This document shows, piece after piece, positions 6,760-61,134 of a stretch of 64,000 bases of DNA; within the stretch, counting starts at the first letter, position 1; every line of letters begins with the position of its first letter. The DNA is from Thiotrichaceae bacterium (GTDB lineage: Bacteria; Pseudomonadota; Gammaproteobacteria; SZUA-140). The stretch spans positions 47,845 to 111,844 of the forward strand of contig NVTY02000019.1 in assembly GCA_002401765.2 (NCBI GenBank), in the 5' to 3' direction. The notes under the pieces were generated by a model. That model did not search any database, had not been told where the DNA came from, and worked only from the letters and a program-made list of their open reading frames with translations. The translations under genes were made by a program, and so were the position numbers.

Positions 6760-6779
6760 GTTGTTTATAGGGGGGCGTT

Positions 6780-7259
6780 ATGCCTAAAATCATCATCGAT
6801 ATCCCAACGCAACGACTGCGCCTGATTGAAGGTGATAAAACGGTAATAGACGTTGCAATTTCAAGCGCCAAAAATGGAGCGGGTGAAACGATGGGCAGTG
6901 AATGCACCCCGCGTGGCAGTCATATCATCCGGGCGAAGATTGGTGCGGGTCATCCATTAAACGCTGTTTTTATAGGACGACGTCCAACAGGCGAGGTTTA
7001 TTCGCCAGCACTTGATGCTGCGCAGCCAGGGCGCGATTGGGTATTGAGCCGAATTCTATGGCTGAGTGGTACGGAGGTTGGGGGAAACCGTTTAGGCAAT
7101 GTGGATTCCATGCGTCGTTACATCTACATCCATGGAACCCCTGATCGCGAACCGATGGGAAAGCCCATGTCACACGGCTGTGTCCGTATGCGCAATGATG
7201 AACTAATCGAACTATTTGATCGTGTCGAAGCGGGTACGCATGTACAGATCAATGGATAA
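6780..7259 (+). CDS. L,D-transpeptidase (YkuD-fold) domain protein
   Basis: Catalytic motif IHGTPDREPMGKPMSHGCVRMRN (His ... S-H-G-C-V-R-M). No obvious signal peptide on the 159 aa product. Confidence 0.8.
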   Translation: MPKIIIDIPTQRLRLIEGDKTVIDVAISSAKNGAGETMGSECTPRGSHIIRAKIGAGHPLNAVFIGRRPTGEVYSPALDAAQPGRDWVLSRILWLSGTEVGGNRLGNVDSMRRYIYIHGTPDREPMGKPMSHGCVRMRNDELIELFDRVEAGTHVQING

Positions 7260-7265
7260 CATTCG

Positions 7266-8195
7266 ATGCTAAGTTTCATCATCTCCCGCCTATTAAGCGC
7301 AGTGTTTGTCATCTTCGGTGTCTCGTGCCTGGTCTTCTTTCTGATTCACCTGGTACCCGGTGATCCAGTTGAGGTGATGCTAGGTGAGTCGAGCCAGCCG
7401 GCGGACCGTGAGGCATTACGAGCGGCGCTGGGGCTTGACCAACCGATACTGGTGCAGTTGGTGAACTACTTTAATGGGCTGCTGCACTTCGACCTGGGTG
7501 AGTCGTTGCATTCCAAGCGGCCGATTGTGGATATGTTGATGGAGCGTATTCCGGCTACTGCAACATTGGCGGCGGCGGGATTGGTGGTTGCGGTGGTGAT
7601 CGCTTTCCCACTGGGCATCATGGCAGCGATGAAAAAAGATACTGCGTGGGATAGCGGCGCGATGTTCTTTTCCCTGTTTGGTATCTCGATCCCTAACTTC
7701 TGGATGGGGCCACTGCTGATTCTATTCTTCTCACTCTGGCTAGGCTGGTTACCGGTCAGTGGACAGTCGGGCATCGCTTCACTGGTATTGCCTGCGTTAA
7801 CATTAGGCACTGCATTGGCGGCGATCCTTGCACGTATGATTCGTGCGACGTTATTGGAAGTGATGGGAGAAGACTATATCCGCACCGCACGTGCCAAAGG
7901 GCTTTCGGAGCGCGCCATCATTATGAATCATGGCCTGAAAAATGCGATGCTGCCGGTGATTACACTGCTGGGCCTGCAGCTTGGAGCGTTGCTTGGTGGC
8001 GCGATGATTACTGAAATCGTCTTTTCATGGCCCGGCATTGGCCAGCTAACGATTGATGCAATCAACCGCCGAGACTACCCAGTGGTACAGGCATGCATTT
8101 TATTGATTAGCCTCACTTACGTGGTGGTCAACACGCTGACCGACCTGGTCTATGCCTGGATGGACCCACGCATTCGACTGGGGAATGCCCAATGA
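7266..8195 (+). CDS. ABC transporter permease (DppB/OppB-like)
   Basis: 309 aa. Starts MLSFIISRLL as DppB/OppB do. Multiple TM segments and the EAA-type loop IRTARAKGLSER. Confidence 0.85.
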   Translation: MLSFIISRLLSAVFVIFGVSCLVFFLIHLVPGDPVEVMLGESSQPADREALRAALGLDQPILVQLVNYFNGLLHFDLGESLHSKRPIVDMLMERIPATATLAAAGLVVAVVIAFPLGIMAAMKKDTAWDSGAMFFSLFGISIPNFWMGPLLILFFSLWLGWLPVSGQSGIASLVLPALTLGTALAAILARMIRATLLEVMGEDYIRTARAKGLSERAIIMNHGLKNAMLPVITLLGLQLGALLGGAMITEIVFSWPGIGQLTIDAINRRDYPVVQACILLISLTYVVVNTLTDLVYAWMDPRIRLGNAQ

Positions 8196-8995
8196 TGCGC
8201 CTCTGGTTTCCTGCTGCCATCTTTGTTTTATGGTTTGTGCTCGCGCTCTTCGGACCGCTGTTTTCACTATCGCCAGACCATATTGAACTCAGTCGAATCC
8301 TGCTGCCGCCCGATGCCAATGAGTGGTTTGGTTATGATGATCTTGGTCGCTCACTGTGGGATCGGCTGATTGTCGGCGCGCAGACATCCTTCATTGTATC
8401 GATGGCAGTGGTCGCTATCTCAATATTGATCGGTGTCACGATTGGCTCATTCAGCGCCTTTGTTGGCGGCTGGTTTGACCACTTGATCGTACGGATCATC
8501 GATATCTTTCTTGCCTTTCCCGGTATTCTGCTGGCGATTGCGTTGGCGGGGTTGATGGGGCCGGGGATTGATAATGTGGTGATTGCGCTTTGCGTTGTCG
8601 GCTGGGTTGGCTTTGCGCGACTCTCGCGTGCACAGGTGATGACGCTAAAAAACCGCGACCATGTACAAGCGGCGATTGCGCTTGGTGCTAGCCGGTCCCG
8701 TATTATTTTTAAACACCTGGTGCCATTGATTGCTGCACCATTGATTGTTGAGGCGACTTTTGCGATCGCCAGTGTTGTGATCGCTGAGGCGGGGCTCTCT
8801 TTTCTTGGCCTCGGTATTCAACCACCGACGCCATCCTGGGGCAGCATGATTCGTGACGGCACACGTTATATGCTGGTCGCACCACACATGGTGCTGGTGC
8901 CGGGCATTGCATTGATGCTGGTGGTGCTGTCGGTTAACCTGCTGGGTGACCGGCTACGTGATTGGCTGGATGTGCGATCACGTGATCGTAAATAA
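8192..8995 (+). CDS. ABC transporter permease (DppC/OppC-like)
   Basis: 267 aa. Overlaps the upstream permease by 4 nt. Carries a binding-protein-dependent transport signature region (AAIALGASRSRIIFKHLVP). Confidence 0.85.
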   Translation: MMRLWFPAAIFVLWFVLALFGPLFSLSPDHIELSRILLPPDANEWFGYDDLGRSLWDRLIVGAQTSFIVSMAVVAISILIGVTIGSFSAFVGGWFDHLIVRIIDIFLAFPGILLAIALAGLMGPGIDNVVIALCVVGWVGFARLSRAQVMTLKNRDHVQAAIALGASRSRIIFKHLVPLIAAPLIVEATFAIASVVIAEAGLSFLGLGIQPPTPSWGSMIRDGTRYMLVAPHMVLVPGIALMLVVLSVNLLGDRLRDWLDVRSRDRK

Positions 8996-9150
8996 ATTAC
9001 ATCCTGTCATCCCGGTAGGCCCTTGGTCGAACTCTATAAGTTGGCGTGGTAGCCTGGGTTGATATCTCTATTTGAGATGGATATAGGCCGTTACTCCAGG
9101 ACACTTCCTTTGGGTGTCGGGTAGGCGGCAGGAATATTGAGGAGTAACGA

Positions 9151-10194
9151 ATGGCGCTAGGACCAGTAATGATGGGGATTGCAACGCTACAGCTGAAGGC
9201 TGAAGAACGCGAGCTGATGACGCATCCATTGATCGGCGGGGTGATTCTTTTTAGCCGTAACTATGAATCACCCACACAGGTGATGGCGTTGGTGGCTGAA
9301 ATTCATGCGCTGCGCACGCCGAAATTGCTGGTAACCGTTGATCACGAAGGTGGTCGAGTGCAGCGTTTTCGTGCTGGTTTTACAGCGCTGCCTGCGGTCA
9401 CGCATCTTGGCAAGCTATTTGATAAAGAGCCGAAAGCGGCACGTGAACTAGCAGAGCTGAGCGGTTGGCTGATGGCGATTGAGATGCGTGCCATCGGCAT
9501 CGATTTTAGCTTTGCACCGGTGCTTGATCTGGGGCGTGGCATTTGCAAAGTGATTGGCGATCGTGCCTTTCATAAAGACCCAGAAGTGGTGGCTGATCTG
9601 GCGCACCAATATATGATCGGCATGCACCGTGCGGGGATGCCCGCAACGGGTAAACATTTTCCCGGTCATGGTGGCGTGGTGGAAGATTCTCACCTCGCGG
9701 TGCCGGTTGATAAACGTCGTTACGAAGACCTGCAGATGGAAGACCTGATGCCGTTTGATCGCATGGCGCACTTTGGCATGGAGGCGGTGATGGTGGCGCA
9801 TGTGCTTTATGAGCAGATCGATAGCAATTTAGCCGGTTTTTCACCATTCTGGTTGCAGGAGGTGCTGCGTAATCGCCTCAAATTTCAGGGGGTGATCTTT
9901 AGCGACGACCTTGAAATGGAAGGGGCGAGTGTGGCCGGTGATGTGGCCGACCGTGCTGAGGCGGCGATCAATGCTGGTTGTGACATGGTGCTGGTCTGTA
10001 AAGAGTTCGATGCGGTAGTGAGCGTGTTAGAAAGGCTTAAAAACTGGCATAATCCCACCTCCCAACTGCGCCTCTCCCGTTTGCATGGTAAGGGGCACGT
10101 GACTTATGAGTCGCTCAGTTCTGACCCCGAATGGAAACGGGCAGTGAAAAAGGTGATTGCCTATGATGAGCCGCATACGCTGGGTCTACTGTAA
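9151..10194 (+). CDS. nagZ: Beta-N-acetylhexosaminidase NagZ (peptidoglycan recycling)
   Basis: GH3 motifs: VDHEGGRVQRF, KHFPGHG, and a D-H catalytic region. About 347 aa. A GAGGAG Shine-Dalgarno (SD) sequence lies upstream of the ATG. Confidence 0.9.
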   Translation: MALGPVMMGIATLQLKAEERELMTHPLIGGVILFSRNYESPTQVMALVAEIHALRTPKLLVTVDHEGGRVQRFRAGFTALPAVTHLGKLFDKEPKAARELAELSGWLMAIEMRAIGIDFSFAPVLDLGRGICKVIGDRAFHKDPEVVADLAHQYMIGMHRAGMPATGKHFPGHGGVVEDSHLAVPVDKRRYEDLQMEDLMPFDRMAHFGMEAVMVAHVLYEQIDSNLAGFSPFWLQEVLRNRLKFQGVIFSDDLEMEGASVAGDVADRAEAAINAGCDMVLVCKEFDAVVSVLERLKNWHNPTSQLRLSRLHGKGHVTYESLSSDPEWKRAVKKVIAYDEPHTLGLL

Positions 10195-10219
10195 ATTTAA
10201 TACTATTGAAGAAGGTCGA

Positions 10220-11257
10220 ATGAATATGAGTCGATTGTTAACTGTTATTGCATCTGCATGGATGCTGCTCTCTACCGCTGCATTTGCAGGCTTTGAACCC
10301 TTTCAGCCGCTACCAGCCAGCCCACCGATCCCAAGCGATAACCTGCAGACATCGGCCAAGATTGCGCTGGGCAAACAACTTTATTTTGATAGTCGACTTT
10401 CTGCCACGTATCGTGTTTCGTGCAATGGTTGTCACAATGTGATGTCGGCGGGTGATGATGGCAAAGCGGTCTCGCGTGGTGCCTTAGGGATCGCGGGTAA
10501 GCGCTCTGCGCCAACACTTTATAACGTCGCGTATCAGACTGTTTATTTCTGGGATGGGCGTGCGGCGAGCCTTGAAGAGGCAATTAAAGAGCACCTGATC
10601 AGCCCGATGGAAATGGGCATGAAAGATAAAAGTGCGGTCGTTGAGCGACTCTGGCAGACAGGTAACTATCAGCAGATTTTTGCGGATACCTTTGGCCCGG
10701 GTGTTGCGTTGAGTTATGAAACCATTACACAGGCACTGGCGTCATATATCCGAACACTGGGTACGCCAGATAGTGATTTTGATCGTTACCTGCGTGGTGA
10801 TAAGGGCGCGATCTCAGTGCAGGCGAAGCGTGGTTACCGTGAGTTTATTGAAGTGGGTTGTGCCTCTTGCCATTTTTGGGTGAATCTGTCTGGCCCTGTC
10901 CCTGGCCTGGCATTTCAGATGGGAGATGGGTTTTATGAATTGTTCCCCAATTATCCGGGTACTAAAGATGAAGCGCGCTATCAATTGGCAGATGATCTTG
11001 GTCGTTACTACGTGACAAAAGATGAGACTGATCGCCGCATGTGGCGTGTGCCTGTATTGCGTAACGTTGGATTGACAGCGCCGTATTTTCATAACGGCCA
11101 GGTTAAGACGTTAGAAGAGGCGATCCGTGTGATGGGCAGCACTCAGTTGGGCAAGGTATTAAGCCGTGCACAACAAGCAGATATCGCTGCATTCTTGCAT
11201 ACCGTGAGTGGGCGTTTCCCAACACAGAAATTCCCTAAGCTTCCTGCCTCTTATTAA
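10220..11257 (+). CDS. Di-haem cytochrome c peroxidase (CCP/MauG family)
   Basis: Signal peptide, two CxxCH motifs (CNGCH and CASCH), and the conserved APYFHNG near the C-terminus. ATG at 10220 with a GAAGG RBS is preferred over the longer ORF. Confidence 0.8.
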   Translation: MNMSRLLTVIASAWMLLSTAAFAGFEPFQPLPASPPIPSDNLQTSAKIALGKQLYFDSRLSATYRVSCNGCHNVMSAGDDGKAVSRGALGIAGKRSAPTLYNVAYQTVYFWDGRAASLEEAIKEHLISPMEMGMKDKSAVVERLWQTGNYQQIFADTFGPGVALSYETITQALASYIRTLGTPDSDFDRYLRGDKGAISVQAKRGYREFIEVGCASCHFWVNLSGPVPGLAFQMGDGFYELFPNYPGTKDEARYQLADDLGRYYVTKDETDRRMWRVPVLRNVGLTAPYFHNGQVKTLEEAIRVMGSTQLGKVLSRAQQADIAAFLHTVSGRFPTQKFPKLPASY

Positions 11258-11268
11258 GAGAATCGATT

Positions 11269-11826
11269 ATGTCCGTGAGTTTTGAAGAGGCGCAGGCTGT
11301 ATTGGCGCGTGCTGAATGTTTACATTCGGTGGATGAGATTAACGTTGCGTTTGATCAGATGGCGGATGCCATTTCACAGAAGATTGGTGATTGCGAACCA
11401 CTGGTGATCTGCGTGATGCAGGGCGGCCTAATTCCGACGGGATTGCTGTTGTCGCGCCTGAGTTTTCCACTGCAGATCGATTACCTGCACGCCTCACGTT
11501 ACGGTGGCAAAACACGTGGCGGTGAGCTTGATTGGAAGGTGTTGCCACATCATGAGCTAAAGGGGCGTACGGTATTGCTGGTGGATGATATCCACGATGA
11601 AGGGGTGACGCTTAAGGCGATCATCGAGTATTGCAAAGAGCATGGTGCTGAAACGGTGCTAAGTGCGGTGTTGATTAATAAATTGCATGAGCGTAAAGCG
11701 GCAGCCCCCGCTGATTTTGTTGGGCTGGATGTAGTAGACCGTTACCTGTTTGGTTATGGCATGGATTACAAAGGGCATCTACGCAATGCGCCGGGTATTT
11801 ATGCCGTTTGCAGTGATGATGAGTGA
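11269..11826 (+). CDS. Hypoxanthine-guanine phosphoribosyltransferase
   Basis: PRPP-binding motif VLLVDDIHDEGVT and C-terminal FGYGMDY, typical of 6-oxopurine PRTs. Confidence 0.8.
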   Translation: MSVSFEEAQAVLARAECLHSVDEINVAFDQMADAISQKIGDCEPLVICVMQGGLIPTGLLLSRLSFPLQIDYLHASRYGGKTRGGELDWKVLPHHELKGRTVLLVDDIHDEGVTLKAIIEYCKEHGAETVLSAVLINKLHERKAAAPADFVGLDVVDRYLFGYGMDYKGHLRNAPGIYAVCSDDE

Positions 11827-11833
11827 GTAAACG

Positions 11834-12577
11834 ATGGTAGATTTAGCAATTATTGGCGGTACGGGATTAACATCACTAGATGGCCTGGAGATCGTCAGGC
11901 GAGAGGTGGTTCATACGCCATTTGGTGAGCCTTCTGGACCGTTGACTCATGGTATGTTGAATGGCAAAGAGGTGCTGTTCCTGGCGCGCCATGGTTATGG
12001 TCATACCATTCCACCACACCGCATTAACTATCGTGCCAATCTCTGGGCATTGCATCACGCCGGTATTAAGCGGGTGATTGCAGTCGCGGCAGTCGGTGGT
12101 ATTCATGATGATTTGCCGCCGGGCGCGCTGGCGATTCCGGATCAAATTATTGATTACACCTGGGGGCGCCCTAGCACTTACTTTGAGGATGATTTGACTG
12201 AGGTAACGCACATCGATTTTAGCTATCCCTACTGTGATGAGTTGCGCGCGCTACTGATTGATCAATGCAAAGCGGCAGGTTTGAATGCCTGTGAAACGGG
12301 TACTTACGGTGCGACTCAGGGGCCGCGTCTTGAGACTGCTGCTGAGATCGCAAGAATGGGGCGCGACGGCTGTACCATGGTGGGAATGACGGGGATGCCT
12401 GAGGCCGTGCTGGCGCGTGAACTCGACTTGAACTACGCCTGTTGTGCGGTATCTGCCAATTGGGCGGCGGGCAAAGGGGATGGCTCTGTTATTTCAATGG
12501 CAGAGATTGAAGAGAACCTTAAGACAGGAATGGAGAGTGTACGAAAAGTACTGCAGCAGTTGCTGTCAAGTTTATAG
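11834..12577 (+). CDS. S-methyl-5'-thioadenosine / S-methyl-5'-thioinosine phosphorylase (MTAP family)
   Basis: IIGGTGL start, FLARHG, YRANLWAL, and the GPRLETAAE and MTGMPEA motifs of MTAP-type PNPs. Confidence 0.85.
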   Translation: MVDLAIIGGTGLTSLDGLEIVRREVVHTPFGEPSGPLTHGMLNGKEVLFLARHGYGHTIPPHRINYRANLWALHHAGIKRVIAVAAVGGIHDDLPPGALAIPDQIIDYTWGRPSTYFEDDLTEVTHIDFSYPYCDELRALLIDQCKAAGLNACETGTYGATQGPRLETAAEIARMGRDGCTMVGMTGMPEAVLARELDLNYACCAVSANWAAGKGDGSVISMAEIEENLKTGMESVRKVLQQLLSSL

Positions 12578-12581
12578 CCTT

Positions 12582-13679
12582 TTACTGAGCCTCGGTGTCG
12601 ATAGTCTCGACACTCTCATTGAGTGATGCGGCATCAGATGCGAGATTTTCTTCCCGTGCGATTTCTGGTTCTGGCTCAGGTTCAGGCAGCTCGTAAGGGA
12701 TAATCTTCACTAGCATGCCAAACATGGGGTGGTCGAAATAGTGCAGCTCTCCGCTGCGTAGGCGTCTTTTCTGATGCATACGGAATAGTGTGGGTGGTTG
12801 CTCGATTTCATCAAAGTTCATGAAAAAGGTGTTGTTTTTCAGTGGCTCTGTCTGGCTACGATAGAGCAAATCTGCCTCAAGGTGCAAATAACGTCCGAGG
12901 TGTAGTTTGATGGTGCCATCGAGTGTTTTGAACTGCGCTTCAATTGGGTTTTTTTCGTTGTCATCCTGAGACACAAATAGCATCGGCGATTTGCTTAATC
13001 CCGCGGGTGCCATCAGAGTATTGATGCTCCTGAAACTGGGTGTTGAGGTCAATGTGACCTGGCTCAAATTGCTATGAATATAGATGGTTTGGGCCGCTTC
13101 TTTTGACGCCACAGGCTGACGCCATGCAATGTTTAAAATAGGCACGTATTGGGCTGAATTTGTTAATGTGTCGGTAAATTCCATTAGCGTTAGTGCGTCA
13201 TCAGAGAGTAGCTGGAAAGGTTGTTCCTGAGGCGATTCTTTTATCGCTAGCACTGTTGTTGCCGTGGTGTGTAGCAACTCAGGCGTGATTGCTAAGCCAA
13301 TAGCATCCGCCTGGGTAAATGTGTGGTTAATTTCTATTTCAAGCGTGTTTTCAGCGCTTGCGGCGGGTAAAAACAATGGGTTTTCTTCGTTCTCGATGTT
13401 AATGTTATCTTCAAGATCAGTTTCGATTATGGGACTAAGCTTGATGGAGTTTTCATAGTTTGGCAGGCCGGGATCATCGGGCCAAATTTCCTGTGAATCT
13501 ATGGTGTTTTTTTCTCGGATTTCAAAGACTATAATCTCGGTCTGAAACCATCGTTCCTCCTCGTCAGGCTCTGGCTGCGCGTTGCCAGGGGTACTCAACA
13601 GTGCGCTGAGCAGGATGGATGGGAATGTAAGGAAAGTACGGGTCATAGAATAATAATTATCAGGCCTGGGTTTTAGCAA
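12582..13679 (-). CDS. Secreted protein, probably CsiV/DUF2803 family (peptidoglycan-associated)
   Basis: Signal peptide followed by the RWFQTEIIVFE motif I associate with CsiV-family proteins. C-terminal RMHQKRRLRSGELHYFDHPMFGMLV block and an acidic PEPEPEPE tail. The family assignment is from memory. Confidence 0.45.
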   Translation of the reverse strand: MLKPRPDNYYSMTRTFLTFPSILLSALLSTPGNAQPEPDEEERWFQTEIIVFEIREKNTIDSQEIWPDDPGLPNYENSIKLSPIIETDLEDNINIENEENPLFLPAASAENTLEIEINHTFTQADAIGLAITPELLHTTATTVLAIKESPQEQPFQLLSDDALTLMEFTDTLTNSAQYVPILNIAWRQPVASKEAAQTIYIHSNLSQVTLTSTPSFRSINTLMAPAGLSKSPMLFVSQDDNEKNPIEAQFKTLDGTIKLHLGRYLHLEADLLYRSQTEPLKNNTFFMNFDEIEQPPTLFRMHQKRRLRSGELHYFDHPMFGMLVKIIPYELPEPEPEPEIAREENLASDAASLNESVETIDTEAQ

Positions 13680-14468: not shown

Positions 14469-15149
14469 TTATAGCGCCCAGGCGAAGGCTTTTTCAAATG
14501 TATTGCGTGCATCCTGTGTAATGGGGCTGCCATGCGCGATAATGATCTTTGTAAAATCCCATTTGGATATTGCCTGAATGGAATCATTAAAGGCGGCGCG
14601 GTCTTTTATCAGTGACTTCAGGATGCGAGTGGGTGTGAACCGCTTGTAGGCAGCATTTAAGTGTAAAAAAATCTTGCCCCAGAGTGACATCGTACCGCCA
14701 AGGTTAAAGGCGAGGTCGGTCAGAATCAAGGTTTGGCTCTCTGCATGGAAGAAGACGAATTCTTGTAGTCGTGGCATACCATTGACCGCGATGCACTGTA
14801 TCTCATTATGCTGAAATGGTAGGAGGTTATTGGTACGCCCTGCGAGTGCGTGTTTTGTTAGGCATTGATCTGTTGGAGCGTATAGCGCTGATTTGGGGTA
14901 GTGCTGCTGCCATTCCTGGATGAAGCGGGTATGTTCCAGGTTGGGTGAAATTAAATAGCGAACTTCTCCGAGTGTATCAATAGCGGTGTAGGTTTCTTCA
15001 TTGCATGGGATCATTGAATGAATCAAAAGTTGTTGGTTACGCAGGCGTACAATCGTCATGCGCAAGCCTAGTGGTACCCCTAGAAAGCTTGAGGGCTGTT
15101 CTACTGTCCAGATGTTGGGCCCAAACTGAAGAAGTAGGTTACTATGCAT
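14469..15149 (-). CDS. DUF4336-like protein (metallo-hydrolase-like fold), function unknown
   Basis: 226 aa. The pattern IWTVEQP...GVPLGLRMTIVRL...LLIHSMIP...LGEVRYLISPNLEH...W...YP resembles DUF4336. Overlaps the marR-type gene upstream by 8 nt, so it is probably co-transcribed. Confidence 0.5.
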   Translation of the reverse strand: MHSNLLLQFGPNIWTVEQPSSFLGVPLGLRMTIVRLRNQQLLIHSMIPCNEETYTAIDTLGEVRYLISPNLEHTRFIQEWQQHYPKSALYAPTDQCLTKHALAGRTNNLLPFQHNEIQCIAVNGMPRLQEFVFFHAESQTLILTDLAFNLGGTMSLWGKIFLHLNAAYKRFTPTRILKSLIKDRAAFNDSIQAISKWDFTKIIIAHGSPITQDARNTFEKAFAWAL

Positions 15150-15588
15150 GATGCTTGTCCTCTTGAGTGTGGATGGCGCTGAGCTGAGCCAGTGTGTTTC
15201 TGAATCGCTCGTATTCTACTTTGCCTAGCGCTGTCTCATATTGAAGTTCAATATCAGCAACAATCTCGACGGCGCGTGAAATTAATTCGCTTCCTTTTTC
15301 GGTGTAATGAACAAACTTGACGCGCCGATCATGCTGCTCTTCAGTGATATTTAGGTAGCCCTTTGTGGTTAGCTCTTTCACCATTCTTCCTACCAGTTGT
15401 TTACTCAGTGCGGCATCTTGCGCAAGTTGACTGATCATCATCCCTTCGTTATTGAGGTGGCGTAGGATGTTTAGGTGTGAGGGGGTGACGTCAGTAATGC
15501 GGTGTGTGGCAAGCTGTTCGAGCAATGTCTGCTCAAAGCCTCTGAAAAGTTTGAGTACAAGTCTGGCGGTGGGTTTAAGTGTTGTCAT
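15142..15588 (-). CDS. MarR-family transcriptional regulator
   Basis: Winged-HTH region: ITDVTPSHLNILRHLNNEGMMISQLAQDAALSKQLVGRMVKELTTKGYL...DRRVK. ATG at 15588 is preferred over the longer ORF. Confidence 0.8.
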   Translation of the reverse strand: MTTLKPTARLVLKLFRGFEQTLLEQLATHRITDVTPSHLNILRHLNNEGMMISQLAQDAALSKQLVGRMVKELTTKGYLNITEEQHDRRVKFVHYTEKGSELISRAVEIVADIELQYETALGKVEYERFRNTLAQLSAIHTQEDKHHA

Positions 15589-15594
15589 GCCCAA

Positions 15595-15633
15595 TAGTAA
15601 ACTATATTTACTATAAAAGTAAATGCAGTTTAC
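15595..15633. promoter_or_regulatory. Two adjacent palindromes immediately upstream of the marR-type gene; candidate autoregulatory operator
   Basis: TAGTAAA-ctata-TTTACTA (15595-15613, perfect 7-5-7) and GTAAA-tgcag-TTTAC (15619-15633, perfect 5-5-5). They share a GTAAA/TTTAC half-site and start 7 nt from the start codon. Confidence 0.4.
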
Positions 15634-15752
15634 CAATCGGCTGTTTATGCTGAGGCTAATGGGGGCTGTATTCGTTATCATGTTAATCAATGAGATATAA
15701 TGATCGTTGGAATTGTGCCTGTATTGAGGCGCAAGCAGTGGGTTAGGAGTTT

Positions 15753-16301
15753 GTGATGTCGGTTAAAAAAGTGGTCAGGATGGGCGATCCTGTATTGTTG
15801 AGCGCGGCGGAGCCGGTGGTGAAATTTAATACGCGTGCACTGAGTCGTTTAGTGAATAATTTGCTCGATACGATGGCGAAGCATGATGGCGCAGGTCTGG
15901 CGGCACCGCAGATTGGGGTAGGCTTACAAGTGGTGGTGTTTGGGCTAGCTGCTAATCCTCGTTACCCTGAAGAGGAGTCGATACCGATGACTGTGCTGGT
16001 TAATCCGCGGATTGAGCCATTGAGTGATCAGGTGGAGGATGGTTGGGAAGGGTGCCTCAGCGTCCCTGGATTGCGCGGTCTGGTGTCGCGTTATACCTAT
16101 ATTCGATATAGTGGGTTTGATCAGTTTGGCGGCAAGATTGAGCGTGAGGTGCGGGGGTTTCATGCGCGCGTGGTGCAACACGAGTGTGATCATCTGGACG
16201 GTGTACTCTACCCTCAGCGCATGACCAATATGCGCGCCTTTGGTTTTGAAGACGAGTTAGAGAGGGCGGTGGAAGCAGAAGAGGTCGATAAAAAAGAGTA
16301 A
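15753..16301 (+). CDS. def: Peptide deformylase
   Basis: All three PDF motifs: GAGLAAPQIG, EGCLSVPG and QHECDHLDG. Confidence 0.9.
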   Translation: MMSVKKVVRMGDPVLLSAAEPVVKFNTRALSRLVNNLLDTMAKHDGAGLAAPQIGVGLQVVVFGLAANPRYPEEESIPMTVLVNPRIEPLSDQVEDGWEGCLSVPGLRGLVSRYTYIRYSGFDQFGGKIEREVRGFHARVVQHECDHLDGVLYPQRMTNMRAFGFEDELERAVEAEEVDKKE

Positions 16302-37815: not shown

Positions 37816-37956
37816 GATCTGGATATCCTATGCTGTGCTTGTAGACTCACCTATCCTCCTCAGTATCACACTATTGTCACCACTAGTGTTAGCGCGCTTT
37901 AAAGGTGCTGTGGGGTGAATGGTTTGTGTTTAAGTGATTGTTGGCGTATAACGAGT

Positions 37957-37983
37957 GTGGCACTATATTATAATTAGTGCCAC
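37957..37983. promoter_or_regulatory. Perfect 9-9-9 palindrome upstream of fpr; candidate regulator binding site
   Basis: GTGGCACTA-tattataat-TAGTGCCAC, about 140 nt upstream of the fpr start codon. The AT-only spacer resembles a -10 region. Confidence 0.3.
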
Positions 37984-38257
37984 GATTTATTGATGGGAAT
38001 TCGTAAATCAATGCCAGAACATCTTAATGAAGAGTCGGAGGCGTTATGTGTGGTGATAGCAGGCAAAATAGAAGTAATAAACAAGCAGGGCTGCGTCCAA
38101 TATCGGCGCAGTCAATTTTAAGCCCATGTAAGTGCGACTGTCAGGTGGTTAAGCGCGTATCAAAAGCCGATCGCGAACAGAAGAAAGTACAGGCAAACCA
38201 AATTGACAGCAGCGTTGCTACTGGCGCAATTCCGTCAGTCTGACTAGTTGAATTCAA

Positions 38258-38635
38258 TTAGCCGAGGCGTCCATCGATTCTAGGTCGGATCAGGTAGGGG
38301 GCATAGACTGCGATAAACAGCGCGAAGGCAGCGCTCCATAATACTTGAGCGCTGCCAATCCATAACGCGTGCCATTCAGGCAGTAGCATTGGCATCATCA
38401 CCCGGATGATGCTGCCTGTGAGCAGCAGCGGTAGACATAACTTCAGCACGGCAGGCGGTTGAGTGACTTTTCGCCCGGTATGACCCAGCGTCACACGCGC
38501 CATCATGCCGATGGTCATCATACCAATACCACCATAGGCAAAGGCGTGCAGTGCGAGCTTTGAATCGAAACCGAGGTAATAAGCGGCGGCGGTGATGGCG
38601 AAGCCGACGATGATCCAGCCGTAAGCATGGAACAA
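38258..38635 (-). pseudogene. nnrS remnant: only the C-terminal ~125 codons of an NnrS-family haem/copper membrane protein
   Basis: Four TM segments with an NnrS C-terminal pattern (ALHAFAYGGIGMMTIGMMARVTLGHTGR). Full-length NnrS is roughly three times longer. Homology stops at about 38640, where base composition changes. There is only a TTG pseudo-start. Confidence 0.6.
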
Positions 38636-38896
38636 AGTTCGCGCCTTGCAATATTGTCTCTCACACTCGTTCTACGCCAAGCTACTGGCTGTCAAGCGAG
38701 TGACCTCAAAGCTTTAGGATTGAAGGAGAATAGATTATGATGGGGCTGATGAGGTACCACAGCTGGGGCACTTCACCGTGGTGTCCTTTAGGAATGCTTG
38801 AGCCGTCAAGATGGGAAACTATCACGCTCGGTTCTGAGGGGGGAATGGGGTCGTAAGGCCCCTGACCTACCCGGTCGCTTAAAAAAGGCAATTTAT

Positions 38897-39355
38897 ATGA
38901 TTGACTGTACATTTGAGCTAAACGATAAACCAATGAGCATTTTCATCTGTGGAGCAACATCATTCCCGGCCTTCTCTGGTCTTGATCAACATGTTAATCG
39001 TTGGCTTTCTGCATGTATTCCAGACCAAGGGCCAATCCCCCCTGGCACTTACTATATATTTGATAGGCAATCTGGTGGTTTATTTGGCCCGCTACGCGAT
39101 ATGTTCACTGGCAAAGACCAATGGTTTGCTCTATACGCTATAGATGGAAAAATAGATGATGAAACATACTGTGATAAAGTCAAGCGTGGTAATTTTCGAC
39201 TACATCCCAAAGGAGATCGCGGTATTAGCAAAGGCTGTATCACAATCGACAGTAAGACCGATTATCAATTTTTAAGAGGAATATTGAAAAACGCTAAACA
39301 AGAAGCAGTGCCCGACTCTCAGTTCCTCGCTTATGGGAAAGTTGTGGTCAGATGA
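38897..39355 (+). CDS. DUF2778 / Tlde1-like protein (L,D-transpeptidase-fold toxin domain)
   Basis: FPAFSG...GPIPPGTYYI...NFRLHPKGDRGISKGCITID matches the DUF2778 pattern (a.SG ... GPiP.G.Y.i ... f.lH ... S.GCI). No signal peptide. ATG at 38897. Confidence 0.6.
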   Translation: MIDCTFELNDKPMSIFICGATSFPAFSGLDQHVNRWLSACIPDQGPIPPGTYYIFDRQSGGLFGPLRDMFTGKDQWFALYAIDGKIDDETYCDKVKRGNFRLHPKGDRGISKGCITIDSKTDYQFLRGILKNAKQEAVPDSQFLAYGKVVVR

Positions 39356-39621
39356 AGAAGATATATCGCTTTAGCTTAACAGGGTTTTGGATGATTTTCG
39401 CCACTGCTTCCTTAGCTCTCTGGTGGTTGGTGAACCCTGATATGTATCCTACTTTTCCAGAACCATTTTGGGAGTGGTTAGGTCATATTTATGCTGTAAC
39501 TTGTTGTGAGGAACAAGCAAATTTAGAATTGTTGGTGCGTCTAAGTTTATCATTTTTTGTCGTTTCTTTATTAACGTTTATTGTTATATTTTTGTGGCGT
39601 ATAAAAAGCGCTAACAAATAG
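39352..39621 (+). CDS. Small two-TM membrane protein; candidate cognate immunity protein
   Basis: The ATG overlaps the upstream TGA (ATGA), which suggests translational coupling. 89 aa with two hydrophobic helices. No family recognised. Confidence 0.4.
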   Translation: MKKIYRFSLTGFWMIFATASLALWWLVNPDMYPTFPEPFWEWLGHIYAVTCCEEQANLELLVRLSLSFFVVSLLTFIVIFLWRIKSANK

Positions 39622-39725
39622 CGCCAGCGGAAATTTATGGCGTGGTTTGGTTTGCGTATTCGCTATCGCTCAATTTTACGCAAACCAAACCATGCTGTAA
39701 ATTTTCGCTGAGCAAAGCGTTAGGC
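39609..39725 (+). mobile_element. Integron attC-type recombination site (~117 bp imperfect palindrome)
   Basis: R'' CGCTAAC (39609-15), L'' GCGCCAG, 36/35 nt imperfectly complementary arms (39621-56 versus 39679-713), L' GCTGAGC, and R' GTTAGGC (39719-25, canonical GTTRRRY). It overlaps the last codons of the upstream ORF, as attC sites often do. Confidence 0.55.
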
Positions 39726-39747
39726 AACAAAATTATCAATAATTTTT

Positions 39748-40098
39748 ATGTTAAAAAATAAATTTATTCGCGTCGTATTTGTAATCGCATTTAGTTTTTC
39801 AAGCAATGTGTATTCTCATTCTGGTGGCACAAATTCGGATGGTTGCCATAATGACAATATTAACGGCGGTTACCATTGTCATCATTCTGACAGTACTGAT
39901 TCAGGTGGTGAAGGAGATATATTAGCGGGGGTATTAATTGCCGGCTTAATATATTGGTATATCGTCAGTAATAAGCCAGAAATATCTAGCATTTCTAAAC
40001 AAGATTCAAACAATGTTAGTAAGTTCAAGCTATCGATTATTCCTAAGTCAAATGAAAGAAACGAAGCTGTTTTACTTAATGTAAGTTATGCGTTTTAA
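39748..40098 (+). CDS. Secreted/anchored YHYH-motif protein
   Basis: Signal peptide, then HSGGTNSDGCHNDNINGGYHCHH (a YHYH-domain-like metal-binding motif), a TM segment and a short tail. Bounded by the two attC-like sites. Confidence 0.5.
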   Translation: MLKNKFIRVVFVIAFSFSSNVYSHSGGTNSDGCHNDNINGGYHCHHSDSTDSGGEGDILAGVLIAGLIYWYIVSNKPEISSISKQDSNNVSKFKLSIIPKSNERNEAVLLNVSYAF

Positions 40099-40100
40099 AT

Positions 40101-40197
40101 GCCCAACAAAGGCAGTAGCGCCGGACAAGCCTCACGCCGCTGCGGCCTGCCGCTCACTGCAGACGTGAGGCTCTCCAAAATGCCCCATCGCTGTTGC
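40101..40197 (+). repeat. Second, degenerate attC-like palindromic element
   Basis: Starts with the inverse-core GCCCAAC three nt after the stop codon. Contains the stem AGCCTCACG ... CGTGAGGCT and ends in GTTGCAA, which violates GTTRRRY at one position. No similarity to the first site. Confidence 0.3.
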
Positions 40198-40375
40198 AAT
40201 AAACAGTTGAAAAATAGTTTGATATTTTCTTAAAAAAGCGTTTGATGGGCATTGAGTTAAAACATAAAGAGAGGAGTATGTTTCAACATTGAAATGCTGA
40301 TTTAATTAAGCGCTGCCCCTGAGTGCAGAAACACCTAGAGGCAGCTAACCACAACCGATACAAGAGATATCAATT

Positions 40376-40612
40376 ATGGCTAAACGCAATGATAAGCGAG
40401 AGACCCGCTCGACTAAAGAAAAATCGATCAAAAAAGCACAAAAACATCCTTACTACCGCTAACTCAAGGTTCGGTCGAGCCTATATTACTACCATTTCGG
40501 CGATTTTCAGCCCCGAGGCCGCTATCGTCCAGTCATCCCTGTTCCCTGGATCAATATCAAAGGTTATTGGCTCAATGAGGCTGGCTTCACCATTTCCTGC
40601 ATCAGCGCATAA
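40376..40612 (+). pseudogene. SymE-family (type I toxin, AbrB-fold) remnant with an in-frame stop and a truncated C-terminus
   Basis: The frame reads MAKRNDKRETRSTKEKSIKKAQKHPYYR*LKVRSSLYYYHFGDFQPRGRYRPVIPVPWINIKGYWLNEAGFTISCISA*. The core IP...I.G.WL.EAGF matches SymE. The TAA at 40460-62 interrupts it, and the usual C-terminal beta-strands are missing. Confidence 0.4.
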
Positions 40613-40789
40613 ATAAACATGCAACTCAATTGAATAGCCTTCAGATAAGCAATATCACTTACGTGAACTACGCGCTGGGAGCGAGGTGAAAAGAGCATGG
40701 TTTGAAGCACTCACAGACAATGATCTCAATCCCATCCATGAAGCCATCTAGGCTATACTGACCCTAGTCAATATATAGATGGACAACCG

Positions 40790-42118
40790 ATGAAACAGAT
40801 CGACACGCTTATTCATGCCCGCTGGGTTATTCCAGTCGAGCCCGCTAATGTCGTGCTTGAAGACCATAGTCTGGCGATGGATGATGGTCGTATTGTTGCT
40901 ATCCTGCCCAGTGTTGAGGCACGGCAGCAATACCGAGGAAAGAATGAACTGACACTTGTCGATCAGGCGTTGATCCCGGGGTTGGTCAACACCCATACTC
41001 ATGCCGCGATGTCACTTTTTCGCGGGCTGGCGGATGATATGCCGTTGATGGAGTGGCTTAACGATCACATTTGGCCGGCGGAGGGGAAGTGGGCCAATGG
41101 TGATTTTGTCCATGATGGCACTCGTCTTGCGATTGCAGAAATGGTTCGTGGTGGCACCACCTGCTTTAGTGATATGTATTTTTTCCCCGGTGAGGTTGCC
41201 CATGTCGCCAGCCAGAGTGGCATGCGTGCTGCGGTTGGTTTGATCATGATCGATTTTCCCACTGCATGGGCGAGTGGCCCCGACGAGTACCTTTCTAAGG
41301 GGCTTAAGGTGCATGACGATTACCGCCATGATCCATTAATTTCGGTCACCTTTGCCCCTCACGCACCCTATACGGTCTCTGATGAACCACTCAAAAGATT
41401 ACAGATGTATGCGGAGGAACTTGATGTGCCGCTGCATATTCATCTGCATGAGACGGCGCATGAGGTCGACGATGCCGTGCAGCAGAACGGTCAACGCCCG
41501 CTTGAGCGGCTCGAAGCCCTTGGCCTACTAACGCCACACCTGGTCGCGGTACATATGACGCAGCTAACGGATGGTGAGATTGAATCAATCGCCACCGCTG
41601 GGGCGCATGTGGTGCACTGTCCAGAATCAAACCTTAAGCTCGCCAGTGGCTTCTGTCCGCTCCATAAACTGCACCAGGCAGGTGTCAATGTGGCGCTGGG
41701 CACGGATGGCGCCGCCAGCAACAATGACCTCGATATGTTTGGTGAGATGCGTACCGCCGCGCTACTTGCCAAGGCGGTGGGGCAGGATGCCAGTGCCATT
41801 CCTGCTGCGACTGCCCTGCAAATGGCGACGCTTAACGGCGCGCGCGCACTGGGGTTGGATAAAGAGATTGGTTCGCTCATCGTCGGTAAGGCTGCCGATA
41901 TAGTGGCGATTGACCTCAGTGAACTGGAGTCGCAACCACTTTACCATCCCATTTCTCAGATCGTTTACGCCACCAATCGTGATAAAGTAAGCCATGTCTG
42001 GGTCAATGGGCGCCACTTGTTAAAGGCGCGCGCTCTGACCACGCTGGATGAAAACCACATCCTCGAAAAAACACGCCAGTGGCGTCAAAAAATCGCTGAG
42101 AGCGATCAGCAGCAATAA
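40790..42118 (+). CDS. mtaD: 5-methylthioadenosine/S-adenosylhomocysteine deaminase (TRZ/ATZ amidohydrolase)
   Basis: Amidohydrolase metal motifs NTHTHAAM, HLHE, HCPESN and GTDGAASNN. Sits upstream of ubiG, as in Pseudomonas. Confidence 0.8.
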   Translation: MKQIDTLIHARWVIPVEPANVVLEDHSLAMDDGRIVAILPSVEARQQYRGKNELTLVDQALIPGLVNTHTHAAMSLFRGLADDMPLMEWLNDHIWPAEGKWANGDFVHDGTRLAIAEMVRGGTTCFSDMYFFPGEVAHVASQSGMRAAVGLIMIDFPTAWASGPDEYLSKGLKVHDDYRHDPLISVTFAPHAPYTVSDEPLKRLQMYAEELDVPLHIHLHETAHEVDDAVQQNGQRPLERLEALGLLTPHLVAVHMTQLTDGEIESIATAGAHVVHCPESNLKLASGFCPLHKLHQAGVNVALGTDGAASNNDLDMFGEMRTAALLAKAVGQDASAIPAATALQMATLNGARALGLDKEIGSLIVGKAADIVAIDLSELESQPLYHPISQIVYATNRDKVSHVWVNGRHLLKARALTTLDENHILEKTRQWRQKIAESDQQQ

Positions 42119-45128: not shown

Positions 45129-45506
45129 TCAGTAACCATCATAGGGCGGCATCGGGACTTCTAAGCCTATAAGGCTGGACTTCAGGCATACTGAAAAATC
45201 TGTTTTCTTATCTAAGTGAAATGCTTTAATGGTGCCGTCACTATTGATTTCAAATACTGCGGAAAATGGCTGTTTTTCTGATTTTTTGTGCTTATCTGAG
45301 CAATTATCAAAAATGCTTGGTTGGTGTTCAAAAAATGAACCATTCAATTGCGTCGCATAAAAAGTGCCAAATTCAGAGCTCATTTCTGTCTTTGCCTGCG
45401 CATAGAGTCTATCGAAGTCATTTGATGCACTTGCGTTAGAAATGGTAATACTGGCAATCAATAACGTCGCATAAAATGTGGCTAGCTTTGGCCTCGTAAT
45501 TTTCAT
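45129..45506 (-). CDS. Hypothetical small secreted protein
   Basis: 125 aa with a clear signal peptide (LLIASITISNASA). No recognisable family. Confidence 0.5.
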   Translation of the reverse strand: MKITRPKLATFYATLLIASITISNASASNDFDRLYAQAKTEMSSEFGTFYATQLNGSFFEHQPSIFDNCSDKHKKSEKQPFSAVFEINSDGTIKAFHLDKKTDFSVCLKSSLIGLEVPMPPYDGY

Positions 45507-45642: not shown

Positions 45643-46062
45643 TTATCGCATCATGACGATGATGACTAATATACCGAGTAAAATAATATATGGGTATGCG
45701 ACAGTAGGGCGCAGGGCGTTACGCATATATTCTTTGATCAATCCAATGGAACCATGTCGGGTTGCCTCCCAGTCTGAATAGAATTGCATGGCCGAATTTT
45801 GGTCGTCGCGTTTGATCAGTTGCTCAAGCGCTAATAGCCGCTCGGTGGTGCGTGCTTGCACGGTACGCCAGATACCTTCTTGCAGCCACAGTACTAATAT
45901 GAATAGTATCGCGATCCATAGGTGGATTGTCAGTCCAATAGTGATAAGGCTGCTGAGAATAGCGACAAGCTTTATCAGCAGGCTATAGCGGTCATAGCGC
46001 TCGTAATCCTGATGTAGGGTTTGCCATTCTTGATTTAACGGGTTTAATGTCGATGTGTCCAT
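45643..46062 (-). CDS. Hypothetical membrane protein
   Basis: 139 aa with three predicted TM helices. No recognisable family. Confidence 0.5.
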   Translation of the reverse strand: MDTSTLNPLNQEWQTLHQDYERYDRYSLLIKLVAILSSLITIGLTIHLWIAILFILVLWLQEGIWRTVQARTTERLLALEQLIKRDDQNSAMQFYSDWEATRHGSIGLIKEYMRNALRPTVAYPYIILLGILVIIVMMR

Positions 46063-53815: not shown

Positions 53816-54508
53816 TTAGGCTGTATGCCTTGGTTTGCGGCGTGCGAACAGTAGTCCCGCTAGCCCCAGGCCGAGAAGAGCGGCTGTTGCGGGTTCCGAT
53901 ACGCTGGTGCTACATGGGTCGTTGTTGATAGAAAAGTTGCCCATTCCCCATTGGAAGGGGTCGATGGTGACCGATGTGATGGCGGAGCACTGGCCTTGGC
54001 GGTTGTCTGCATAGATGCCAAAGCCGGGGGTTTCGCTAGCGCTGAGTCCAAAATAGTGCTTGTTTTCAATCCCGCTTCCATCAAATTCAGTAGCGGTTAA
54101 CCAACCGCGTGCGGACATGTTTGAGCCCACATTAAATGAAAATGCACGGGTGTTTTCTGGTAATAAAATGGTTACCCAGTTAACGCCGGTGGTGAAAATA
54201 TCATAATTATTAGTTTCACCATTCACCCACCAGTCGGTGGAGTCTGCAAGGCCGCGTGACATGTTTAGCGTTGCGCCGCCAGCATCAATAAACGTCAGTA
54301 ACCCATTTAGAGGGGCGCTTACGGTTGATGTGTCTCCGCTCAGAGTATGGTTGACAATGGCAAAGTCAGTCATTGCATACCCGCCGATGGTCTCTGGGGT
54401 GGGTGTGCCGCTGTCGTACTGTTCAAGAATCAATCCTGCATTCGCAATGGATGCGAAAAAGGTCAATGCAAATGTGCTTAGGAGTGCTTTAAATAATTGT
54501 GTAGTCAT
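53816..54508 (-). CDS. PEP-CTERM sorting-signal protein (exosortase substrate)
   Basis: Signal peptide plus a C-terminal VSEPATAALLGLGLAGLLFARRKPR (PEP-like motif, TM helix, basic tail). Confidence 0.7.
   Translation of the reverse strand: MTTQLFKALLSTFALTFFASIANAGLILEQYDSGTPTPETIGGYAMTDFAIVNHTLSGDTSTVSAPLNGLLTFIDAGGATLNMSRGLADSTDWWVNGETNNYDIFTTGVNWVTILLPENTRAFSFNVGSNMSARGWLTATEFDGSGIENKHYFGLSASETPGFGIYADNRQGQCSAITSVTIDPFQWGMGNFSINNDPCSTSVSEPATAALLGLGLAGLLFARRKPRHTA

Positions 54509-59107: not shown

Positions 59108-61134
<2,027 letters not shown>

Follow-up and report, generated by a model that had tools for sequence, protein, structure and literature searches.

A Tlde1-family gene pair on an integron cassette: a candidate portable type VI effector-immunity module

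Why does a gene resembling those of peptidoglycan-attacking type VI secretion system (T6SS) effectors lie in a stretch of DNA among whose annotated open reading frames (ORFs) no T6SS gene was found? The stretch, hereafter the window, comprises 64,000 nucleotides (nt) of contig NVTY02000019.1 (positions 47,845 to 111,844) from the Thiotrichaceae bacterium assembly GCA_002401765.2. It contains a 152-amino-acid (aa) ORF whose stop overlaps the start of an 89-aa ORF with two predicted transmembrane (TM) helices. An initial annotation had left three options for this pair: a stand-alone addiction or defence module, a distantly delivered effector with a new type of immunity protein, or a non-toxic cell-wall editing enzyme. 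We consider it likely, at a probability of about 0.62, that positions 38876-39725 are a horizontally traded T6SS effector-immunity module on a mobile, promoterless integron cassette. Five elements of this reading are shown directly: the toxin belongs to the family, it has the catalytic residues, its coupling to the partner gene is conserved, the pair has the structure of a cassette, and relatives are linked to T6SS genes.

The toxin gene and its coupled partner

The 152-aa ORF belongs to the Tlde1/DUF2778 family, as indicated by its match to the Pfam profile PF10908 (Tlde1_dom; E 2.7e-33), which scores 115.4 bits where 30.1 would suffice and spans positions 2-118 of the 120 in the profile. This bears out the family assignment of the initial annotation, including the His...S-x-G-C motif on which it was based. 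The motif reads RLH103PKGDRGIS111KG113C114I and thus contains the catalytic H...[S/T]xGC signature; across 25 aligned toxin homologues, H103, S111, G113 and C114 never vary, and neither do three further cysteines, C4, C40 and C92. Consistent with the earlier proposal, the toxin has no cleavable leader peptide, because its N-terminus MIDCTFELNDKPMS (MIDCTFELN...) is kept across homologues and is modelled by AlphaFold2 (AF2) as a confident beta-strand. The AF2 model has a pLDDT of 77, with residues 59-98 poorly modelled. Its six best Foldseek matches in the PDB are L,D-transpeptidases or carboxypeptidases (E 0.03-0.07, TM-score 0.36-0.46), and Tlde1a of Salmonella was not among the retrieved structures. 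The toxin is 49% identical to EBA44643.1, a member of the published Tlde1-family alignment; its local alignment with Salmonella Tlde1a covers 55 residues (33% identical) around the catalytic H121 and C131 only, and the capping insert of Tlde1a is missing. Collectively, 38897-39355 encodes a Tlde1-family toxin, predicted to be enzymatically active and toxic in the periplasm.

A database search yielded 790 relatives of the toxin. The best 120 are 63-83% identical to it and nearly all exactly 152 aa long, and this tight clade is mostly environmental. The identical toxin protein was found on 14 contigs from several samples.

The relative studied by experiment is Tlde1a of Salmonella Typhimurium, encoded with its immunity protein Tldi1a as STM14_0336/0335 and described by a crystal structure and biochemistry (PMC9638812). 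This T6SS effector, whose toxicity is confined to the periplasm and depends on H121 and C131, strips D-Ala4 from the tetrapeptides of peptidoglycan and swaps it for other D-amino acids (bioRxiv 10.1101/2020.02.18.954545). Periplasm-specific toxicity and these peptidoglycan activities were shown for Tlde1a only.

The ATGA overlap, the two-TM ORF behind it and the run of that ORF into an attC-like site were all found where the initial annotation had placed them. Conservation of the 89-aa ORF beside homologues, on which that annotation had staked its proposal, was examined with a partner-profile search of genome loci fetched with the toxin alignment (numbered with an L, for example L014). A partner homologue lies directly 3' of the toxin gene in 77 of the 78 loci with enough sequence; three of the 80 loci profiled lack it, two of which end at a contig edge. 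The 51 distinct partner sequences, 78-105 aa long and mutually alignable, begin 4 nt ahead of the stop of the toxin gene. Partner sequences change at roughly double the pace of toxin sequences (mean pairwise identity 29% versus 58%), and the two divergences are correlated (r = 0.44, Mantel p = 0.001). The same pattern, immunity proteins diverging more than effectors, was reported in the founding study of the family (bioRxiv 10.1101/2020.02.18.954545).

The AF2 model of the 89-aa partner (pLDDT 85.6) contains helices at residues 2-27, 37-47 and 52-88. Both termini of the partners are basic and the interhelix loop of ~35 aa is acidic, so the positive-inside rule predicts an N-in/C-in topology with the loop in the periplasm. 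This loop (NPDxFPxxPExFxxWLxxLYGxxNAEExADLExL), not the TM helices, is the best conserved part of the protein. The toxin thus has an adjacent conserved partner whose loop is predicted to lie in the compartment where the toxin would act, as expected of an immunity gene. Judged from its sequence, the 89-aa ORF is a real gene cognate to the toxin, and its loop may neutralise the enzyme. An exhaustive profile search extended the partner family to 261 clusters at 50% identity, nearly all of 80-100 aa; the family has no Pfam or NCBIfam model and no name beyond 'hypothetical protein'. The idea that a membrane partner would be a new immunity type did not hold, since TM immunity proteins and frequent orphan loci had already been reported for Tae7 (bioRxiv 10.1101/2020.02.18.954545).

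Tandem toxin copies, truncated toxins and extra partner genes were observed at four loci (L041 7542-12979, L032 10001-12135, L060 7197-8571 and L045 5897-7328). They resemble the orphan-immunity arrays known from T6SS effector loci.

The attC site and the limits of the cassette

The partner ORF runs into an attC site at 39609-39725. Its arms of 34 nt are 88% complementary, and the R'' core CGCTAAC overlaps the end of the partner ORF, whose TAG stop follows 3 nt further. Folding of the single-stranded DNA gave z = -7.65 for the top strand and -6.18 for the bottom strand (0 of 200 shuffles were as good), and the bottom-strand stem carries bulged bases, as expected of attC sites. The R''/L''...L'/R' cores, the imperfect palindrome and the bulges are thus all present.

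Homology limits delineate the same unit. When 38000-40800 was compared by blastn with all fetched loci, of which ~50 matched, the matches covered only 38880-39356 and, in L014, the attC; the part 39600-39720 is 75% identical to the attC behind the homologous cassette there. Nothing beyond 38880-39720 is common to the window and any fetched locus. In relatives, a canonical R' (GTTAGCG...) lies 25-58 nt before the toxin ATG (L014, L015, L059, L010, L030, L082, L027 and L024), and an R'' GCGCTAAC lies over the partner stop codon (L014, L015, L016, L025, L035, L066, L082 and L019). In 10 loci the R'' core itself supplies the stop codon of the partner (offset -4). Complete short attC sites were found in L016 (62 nt) and L066 (67 nt), and one relative is part of an extended array of small ORFs, all on the same strand, among which are ParDE, CcdAB and a Rap1a-like gene. 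The pair therefore recurs as one unit in varied contexts, with homology ending at attC cores. In Massilia, Cupriavidus, Burkholderia and Noviherbaspirillum the toxin-partner pair occurs without attC cores, in ordinary chromosomal islands. The GC content is 36-42% across 39.0-40.6 kb and 50-55% in the flanking housekeeping genes. Toxin, partner and attC are one integron cassette, and these homology limits and the attC cores of relatives confirm the integron-style packaging that the initial annotation had suspected.

Two other lines of search for integron features were discarded. A heuristic attC finder (AAC...GTT cores, fold energy and symmetry) returned dozens of matches, on either strand, both within GC-rich loci and among the housekeeping genes of the window; because it was unspecific, its counts were set aside in favour of position-specific cores, folding z-scores and homology limits. 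Upstream of the cassette in L010, a 100-aa Phage_int_SAM_4 fragment was considered as an integron integrase; its only support was a 17-bit match to a generic XerA/integrase NCBIfam model, IS91-type genes surround it, and we do not call it IntI.

The mobility of the cassette also bears on whether the enzyme could instead be a non-toxic L,D-carboxypeptidase, cytoplasmic or membrane-associated, that edits or recycles host peptidoglycan with the membrane protein as its partner or regulator. Cytoplasmic YkuD-superfamily enzymes do exist, such as the ElsL-like protein encoded at 6780-7259 of the window, and the toxin likewise lacks a leader peptide. However, the gene lies on a mobile, low-GC cassette, the host already encodes ElsL, and the family is patchy across distant taxa, with multiple copies, truncated toxins and orphan partners (L032, L041 and L060) that fit arrays of weapons and immunity genes. 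Further arguing against host maintenance, the three additional invariant cysteines parallel the disulfide-stabilised, periplasm-active Tlde1a. We regard a housekeeping role as very improbable.

Secretion context and related systems

None of the ORFs annotated in the 64 kb encodes VgrG, Hcp, PAAR or a Tss protein, in agreement with the initial annotation, and none encodes an integrase; all family matches are housekeeping proteins. This annotation covered every ORF that reaches 300 aa and most of those between 100 and 300 aa, with several exceptions of ~180-230 aa at 11269-11826, 14469-15149, 15142-15690, 15753-16301, 53816-54508 and 60496-61134. The called genes at 45129-45506 and 45643-46062 have no Pfam family on record.

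T6SS linkage, absent among the annotated ORFs of the window, is present in relatives. Inside this clade, hcp ends 60 nt before a 65%-identical toxin homologue in a Hydrogenophilales metagenome-assembled genome (L040). A conjugative plasmid of Pseudomonas syringae carries hcp, a 45%-identical toxin and a 94-aa two-TM ORF joined to it by a GTGA overlap; the 94-aa ORF is probably an immunity gene. It is located at L099 6486-6770 (NZ_LT985195.1); the incomplete gene table of PLSDB does not list it, although the original record may, and the hcp there is an orphan. In Massilia, the T6SS lipase Tle3 and its adaptor Tla3 are encoded within 10 kb of the toxin pair. Together, family membership and the linkage to hcp, Tle3 and Tla3 in relatives are the grounds on which we read the cassette as a portable effector-immunity module. 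Of the three options left initially, the distantly delivered effector fits best, given the hcp of L040 and the hcp-toxin-two-TM arrangement of the plasmid; the addiction or defence module and the editing enzyme gained no positive support.

How could such a module work? By analogy with Tlde1a, the enzyme would act on residue four of the stem peptides in peptidoglycan, trimming or exchanging it (L,D-carboxypeptidase and D-amino-acid exchange activity). Harm would be confined to the periplasm, and the leaderless enzyme would stay harmless in the cytoplasm of the producer until exported, most likely as cargo inside the Hcp tube of a T6SS encoded elsewhere, by which it might also be delivered in this host. 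The second gene is translationally coupled to the first through the ATGA overlap, and its inner-membrane hairpin would present the acidic loop to the periplasm, where it could bind and neutralise toxin injected by sister cells. The attC lets integron integrases move the pair between arrays, which explains why the cassette occurs in many unrelated contexts in Gamma- and Betaproteobacteria. Here, the cassette is stranded in a decayed, integrase-less array, and a truncated group II intron has taken the place of the attC upstream.

Several results weigh against this reading. Besides the lack of T6SS genes among the annotated ORFs of the window, only one of the 80 loci has an adjacent hcp and only one lineage has T6SS effector neighbours, most contexts being uninformative. 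The homology of the partner family to hcp-linked and plasmid partners (Erwinia and P. syringae plasmids) is marginal (hhalign E 3e-4 and 7e-3), so that a common architecture is all we claim between the partner families. No sigma-70-like promoter was found upstream of the cassette on the + strand, and the Shine-Dalgarno sequence is weak (AAGG). The toxin fold is supported to a moderate degree (pLDDT 77; Foldseek E ~0.03). When the PDB was searched with a profile of the toxin alignment, nothing came up at E <= 1, Tlde1a included, so the relation of the toxin to Tlde1a rests on the Pfam match and the short pairwise alignment. For the 152-aa clade, activity, toxicity and secretion are predictions from its relatives.

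Clustering of the neighbours in the 80 loci gave frequent clusters that are signalling, flagellar or lineage-specific; T6SS genes among them are Tle3/Tla3 and one hcp, vgrG and PAAR not having been screened systematically. Flagellar export and motor genes (flhB, flhA, fliPQR and motAB) are neighbours of the toxin pair, at distances of up to 10 kb, in three contexts that differ in arrangement (L036-L075 in Massilia; L096 18293-20459; L097 15076-20465), for which a rough chance estimate is p ~0.03. These neighbours may simply reflect variable islands beside flagellar clusters. Also in L097 (1-5898), a metagenomic homologue is part of a toxin island made up of large polymorphic-toxin genes (eCIS_core/Ntox4), repeated insertion sequences and a group II intron reverse transcriptase that is intact.

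That most loci have no T6SS neighbour raises the alternative of a self-contained module working without a T6SS, either an addiction or abortive-infection device or a lysis cassette in which the two-TM partner gates the enzyme like a holin instead of neutralising it. A leaderless peptidoglycan enzyme followed by an overlapping two-TM protein with charged termini does resemble an endolysin-holin pair, and integron arrays abound in toxin-antitoxin and phage-defence cassettes (bioRxiv 10.1101/2024.07.02.601686). However, conservation of the partner peaks in the 35-aa acidic loop and not in the helices, which points to specific protein binding, and the gene order and fast partner divergence are typical of effector-immunity pairs. 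Moreover, hcp is directly linked inside the clade (L040) and on the plasmid relative, and Tlde1a is harmless in the cytoplasm, so that classical addiction would need export. We therefore judge a T6SS-independent module improbable. A self-sufficient weapon or suicide module that exports its enzyme through the holin-like partner, or under its control, or by another route such as the flagellar export apparatus, with its genes near three independent homologues, is quite improbable. Were a T6SS-free module the right answer, integrons would be spreading plug-and-play lysis or abortive-infection modules, not ammunition for an existing secretion system.

Among described systems, the presumed effector-immunity pair comes closest to Tlde1c/Tldi1c, a subfamily among the L,D-transpeptidase-like T6SS effectors (Sibinelli-Sousa et al. 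2020; Lorente Cobo et al. 2022, PMC9638812). The preprint named Tlde1c Tae7 and its partner Tai7, and reported Hcp association and TM-type immunity proteins for Tae7; only 42.6% of Tae7-carrying genomes have a member near T6SS genes, and small effectors were proposed to travel as Hcp cargo (bioRxiv 10.1101/2020.02.18.954545; Sibinelli-Sousa et al. 2020). The two systems share a leaderless single DUF2778 domain of ~150-175 aa with a His...S-x-G-Cys motif and no Tlde1a-type capping insert. Both are bicistrons with a downstream, fast-evolving TM immunity gene, often orphan and sometimes beside an orphan hcp, and both have a taxonomic spread that takes in Burkholderia as well as Pseudomonas, Pantoea, Klebsiella and Ralstonia plasmids. 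This likeness to Tlde1c over Tlde1b rests on features, not on phylogeny. Unlike Tlde1c/Tldi1c, the clade of the window is tightly 152 aa, mostly environmental, and travels as an attC-bounded integron cassette.

With Salmonella Tlde1a, the window protein shares the Pfam family, the spacing of catalytic His and Cys, a size small enough for the proposed Hcp-cargo route and, as its expected target, the mDAP3-D-Ala4 bond of stem peptides. It differs in lacking the capping subdomain. In Salmonella, immunity comes from a soluble DUF2195 protein of the periplasm, whose gene lies upstream of the effector gene and within a T6SS cluster, whereas the candidate here has two TM helices, its gene lies downstream, and a T6SS cluster is not close by.

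Earlier work has described this toxin family, immunity proteins of the membrane type and orphan loci, and likewise cassette arrays that lack an integrase and attC sites invaded by introns. The searchable Tlde1 literature does not mention a Tlde1 pair on an attC-bounded integron cassette, and the one paper that names both Tlde1 and integrons is unrelated; within that literature, an effector-immunity pair circulating as an attC-bounded cassette and the definition of its immunity family are apparently new. If confirmed, integrons would traffic effector-immunity pairs between distant Proteobacteria beside resistance, toxin-antitoxin and phage-defence genes, and a T6SS host could gain or swap ammunition by cassette capture. 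The sizeable unnamed two-helix family (261 clusters) could then be annotated as Tlde1-type immunity proteins, and orphan immunity genes would become easier to detect in genomes and metagenomes.

The array remnant around the cassette

The surroundings of the cassette hold a group II intron remnant, a truncated nnrS and other signs of decay that the initial annotation had passed over (Table 1).

Table 1. Features of the cassette and its flanks, in window coordinates (UTR, untranslated region)
Feature	Coordinates	Strand	Basis or remarks
nnrS C-terminal third (truncated), left edge of acquired segment	38258-38635	-	Pfam NnrS E 2.9e-31, profile 255-371 of 371
Group II intron reverse transcriptase N-terminus remnant, 23 aa	38646-38717	+	LQYCLSHSFYAKLLAVKRVTSKL, Pfam RVT_N
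Group II intron domains V-VI, 3' end of 5'-truncated intron	38798-38875	+	Rfam RF00029
Two-gene integron cassette (5' UTR, toxin, candidate immunity gene, attC)	38876-39725	+	Homology limits and attC cores of relatives
Toxin ORF, 152 aa, 17 kDa	38897-39355	+	Tlde1/DUF2778 family, putative L,D-transpeptidase-like fold
Partner ORF, 89 aa, two TM helices, candidate cognate immunity protein	39352-39621	+	ATGA overlap with toxin stop
attC of cassette 1	39609-39725	+	R'' CGCTAAC, R' GTTAGGC, imperfect palindrome
Second cassette ORF, 116-aa YHYH-domain protein	39748-40098	+	NCBIfam NF033223 YHYH_alt E 1.4e-8, 34.9 bits (cut-off 30)
Degenerate attC-like sequence ending cassette 2 (uncertain)	40100-40251	+	R''-like TGCCCAAC pairs with GATGGGCA; GTT reads GAT
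SymR-like antisense RNA	40309-40381	-	Rfam symR 47 bits, gathering score 61, E 4.4e-7
symE-like pseudogene	40377-40613	+	Pfam SymE_toxin E 1.1e-6, 29.1 bits, profile 13-37 of 54

An intact nnrS would reach ~39370; since only its C-terminal third is left, the acquired segment replaced the 5' two-thirds of the gene. The reverse transcriptase remnant LQYCLSHSFYAKLLAVKRVTSKL matches RVT_N with E 2.8e-6 at 28.0 bits, against a cut-off of 28.1. The intron end matches RF00029 over the full model (1-77) at 43.7 bits (gathering score 40). Directly behind it stands CGCTTAAAAAAGG, matching the cassette 5' end GTTAGCGCTTAAAAAA in L014, which places the intron in the R' core of the preceding attC in the orientation of the cassette genes. 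Independently, L016 has domains V-VI (37.7 bits) right before its Tlde1 cassette and, at the other contig end, an intron 5' end (GTGCG...) after an attC reading '...AAAACGTTA'.

Group II introns or their fragments were observed in this orientation, in or after the R' core (GTTA|GCGC), in several independent arrays carrying this cassette (window 38646-38875; L016 65-139 and 2958-3090; L014 10824-10934; L010 7808-8040). Classic IIC-attC introns are antisense (PMC3001079), and sense, 5'-truncated introns downstream of attC are known from toxin-antitoxin cassettes of integrase-less arrays (PMC7923331). A 19-nt inverted repeat (37941-37959 and 38662-38680, 95% complementary) brackets the nnrS fragment, with one arm inside the reverse transcriptase remnant. 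It was considered as a sign of a second, inverted intron copy, an idea dropped because the aligned flanks share nothing past those 19 nt. An inversion or another rearrangement may have left it behind.

To the right of the cassette, the YHYH ORF, which has an N-terminal hydrophobic segment, starts 22 nt past the R' core of the first attC and ends beside a GCCCAAC core. The sequence behind it was considered as a second attC that would make the array a CALIN, an integrase-less cassette array with at least two attC sites (PMC4889954). We downgraded it to degenerate, because its fold is not significant (z -1.8 and -1.1) and its GTT reads GAT. Further right, the SymR-like RNA lies over the start of the symE-like pseudogene, which has a truncated C-terminus and matches SymE_toxin only when translated through an in-frame stop. 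To judge from these matches, 40309-40613 is apparently what decay has left of a type I toxin-antitoxin module, placed where the cassette remnant ends. Beyond it come mtaD-like, ubiG, gph and rmuC, all housekeeping genes.

A complete integron is not what these features describe, as no integrase was found among the annotated ORFs of the window; with one convincing attC in the window, the array does not clearly qualify as a CALIN either. Intron remnants stand in place of the upstream attC, and the terms that suit the region best are cassette-array remnant or solitary attC. It resembles the toxin-antitoxin cassettes of Halorhodospira halochloris (PMC7923331), which are likewise attC-bounded two-gene toxin/antidote cassettes with no integrase nearby, a 5'-truncated intron in cassette orientation just downstream of attC, and further toxin-antitoxin remnants adjoining. 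Unlike in those cassettes, the toxin of the window would act outside the cytoplasm and resembles an interbacterial effector, not a type II toxin.

Does the decay mean that the pair is a silent relic? On this account the cassette is genuine but here the unexpressed cargo of a dead array that has neither an integrase nor a Pc promoter, possibly in a host without a T6SS, and persists because it is recent. Consistent with it are the lack of integrase and T6SS genes among the annotated ORFs, the absence of a promoter-like site upstream on the + strand, and the company of a truncated intron, a degenerate second attC, a symE pseudogene and a truncated nnrS. However, both ORFs are intact with all invariant residues present, the identical toxin recurs on 14 contigs from several samples, and introns in cassette arrays can supply outward promoters (PMC3001079). 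We consider a silent relic unlikely, with a modest chance of being right. Array decay makes it possible that the pair is silent here and does not contradict the origin of the effector-immunity module as a cassette.

Elsewhere in the window, 5230-13679 is an apparent peptidoglycan-recycling neighbourhood. Besides a peptide ABC transporter (a solute-binding protein and two permeases), it encodes the ElsL-like L,D-carboxypeptidase at 6780-7259, which is a leaderless YkuD-family protein, a NagZ-like member of glycoside hydrolase family 3 at 9151-10194 and, at 12582-13679, the peptidoglycan-binding protein CsiV.

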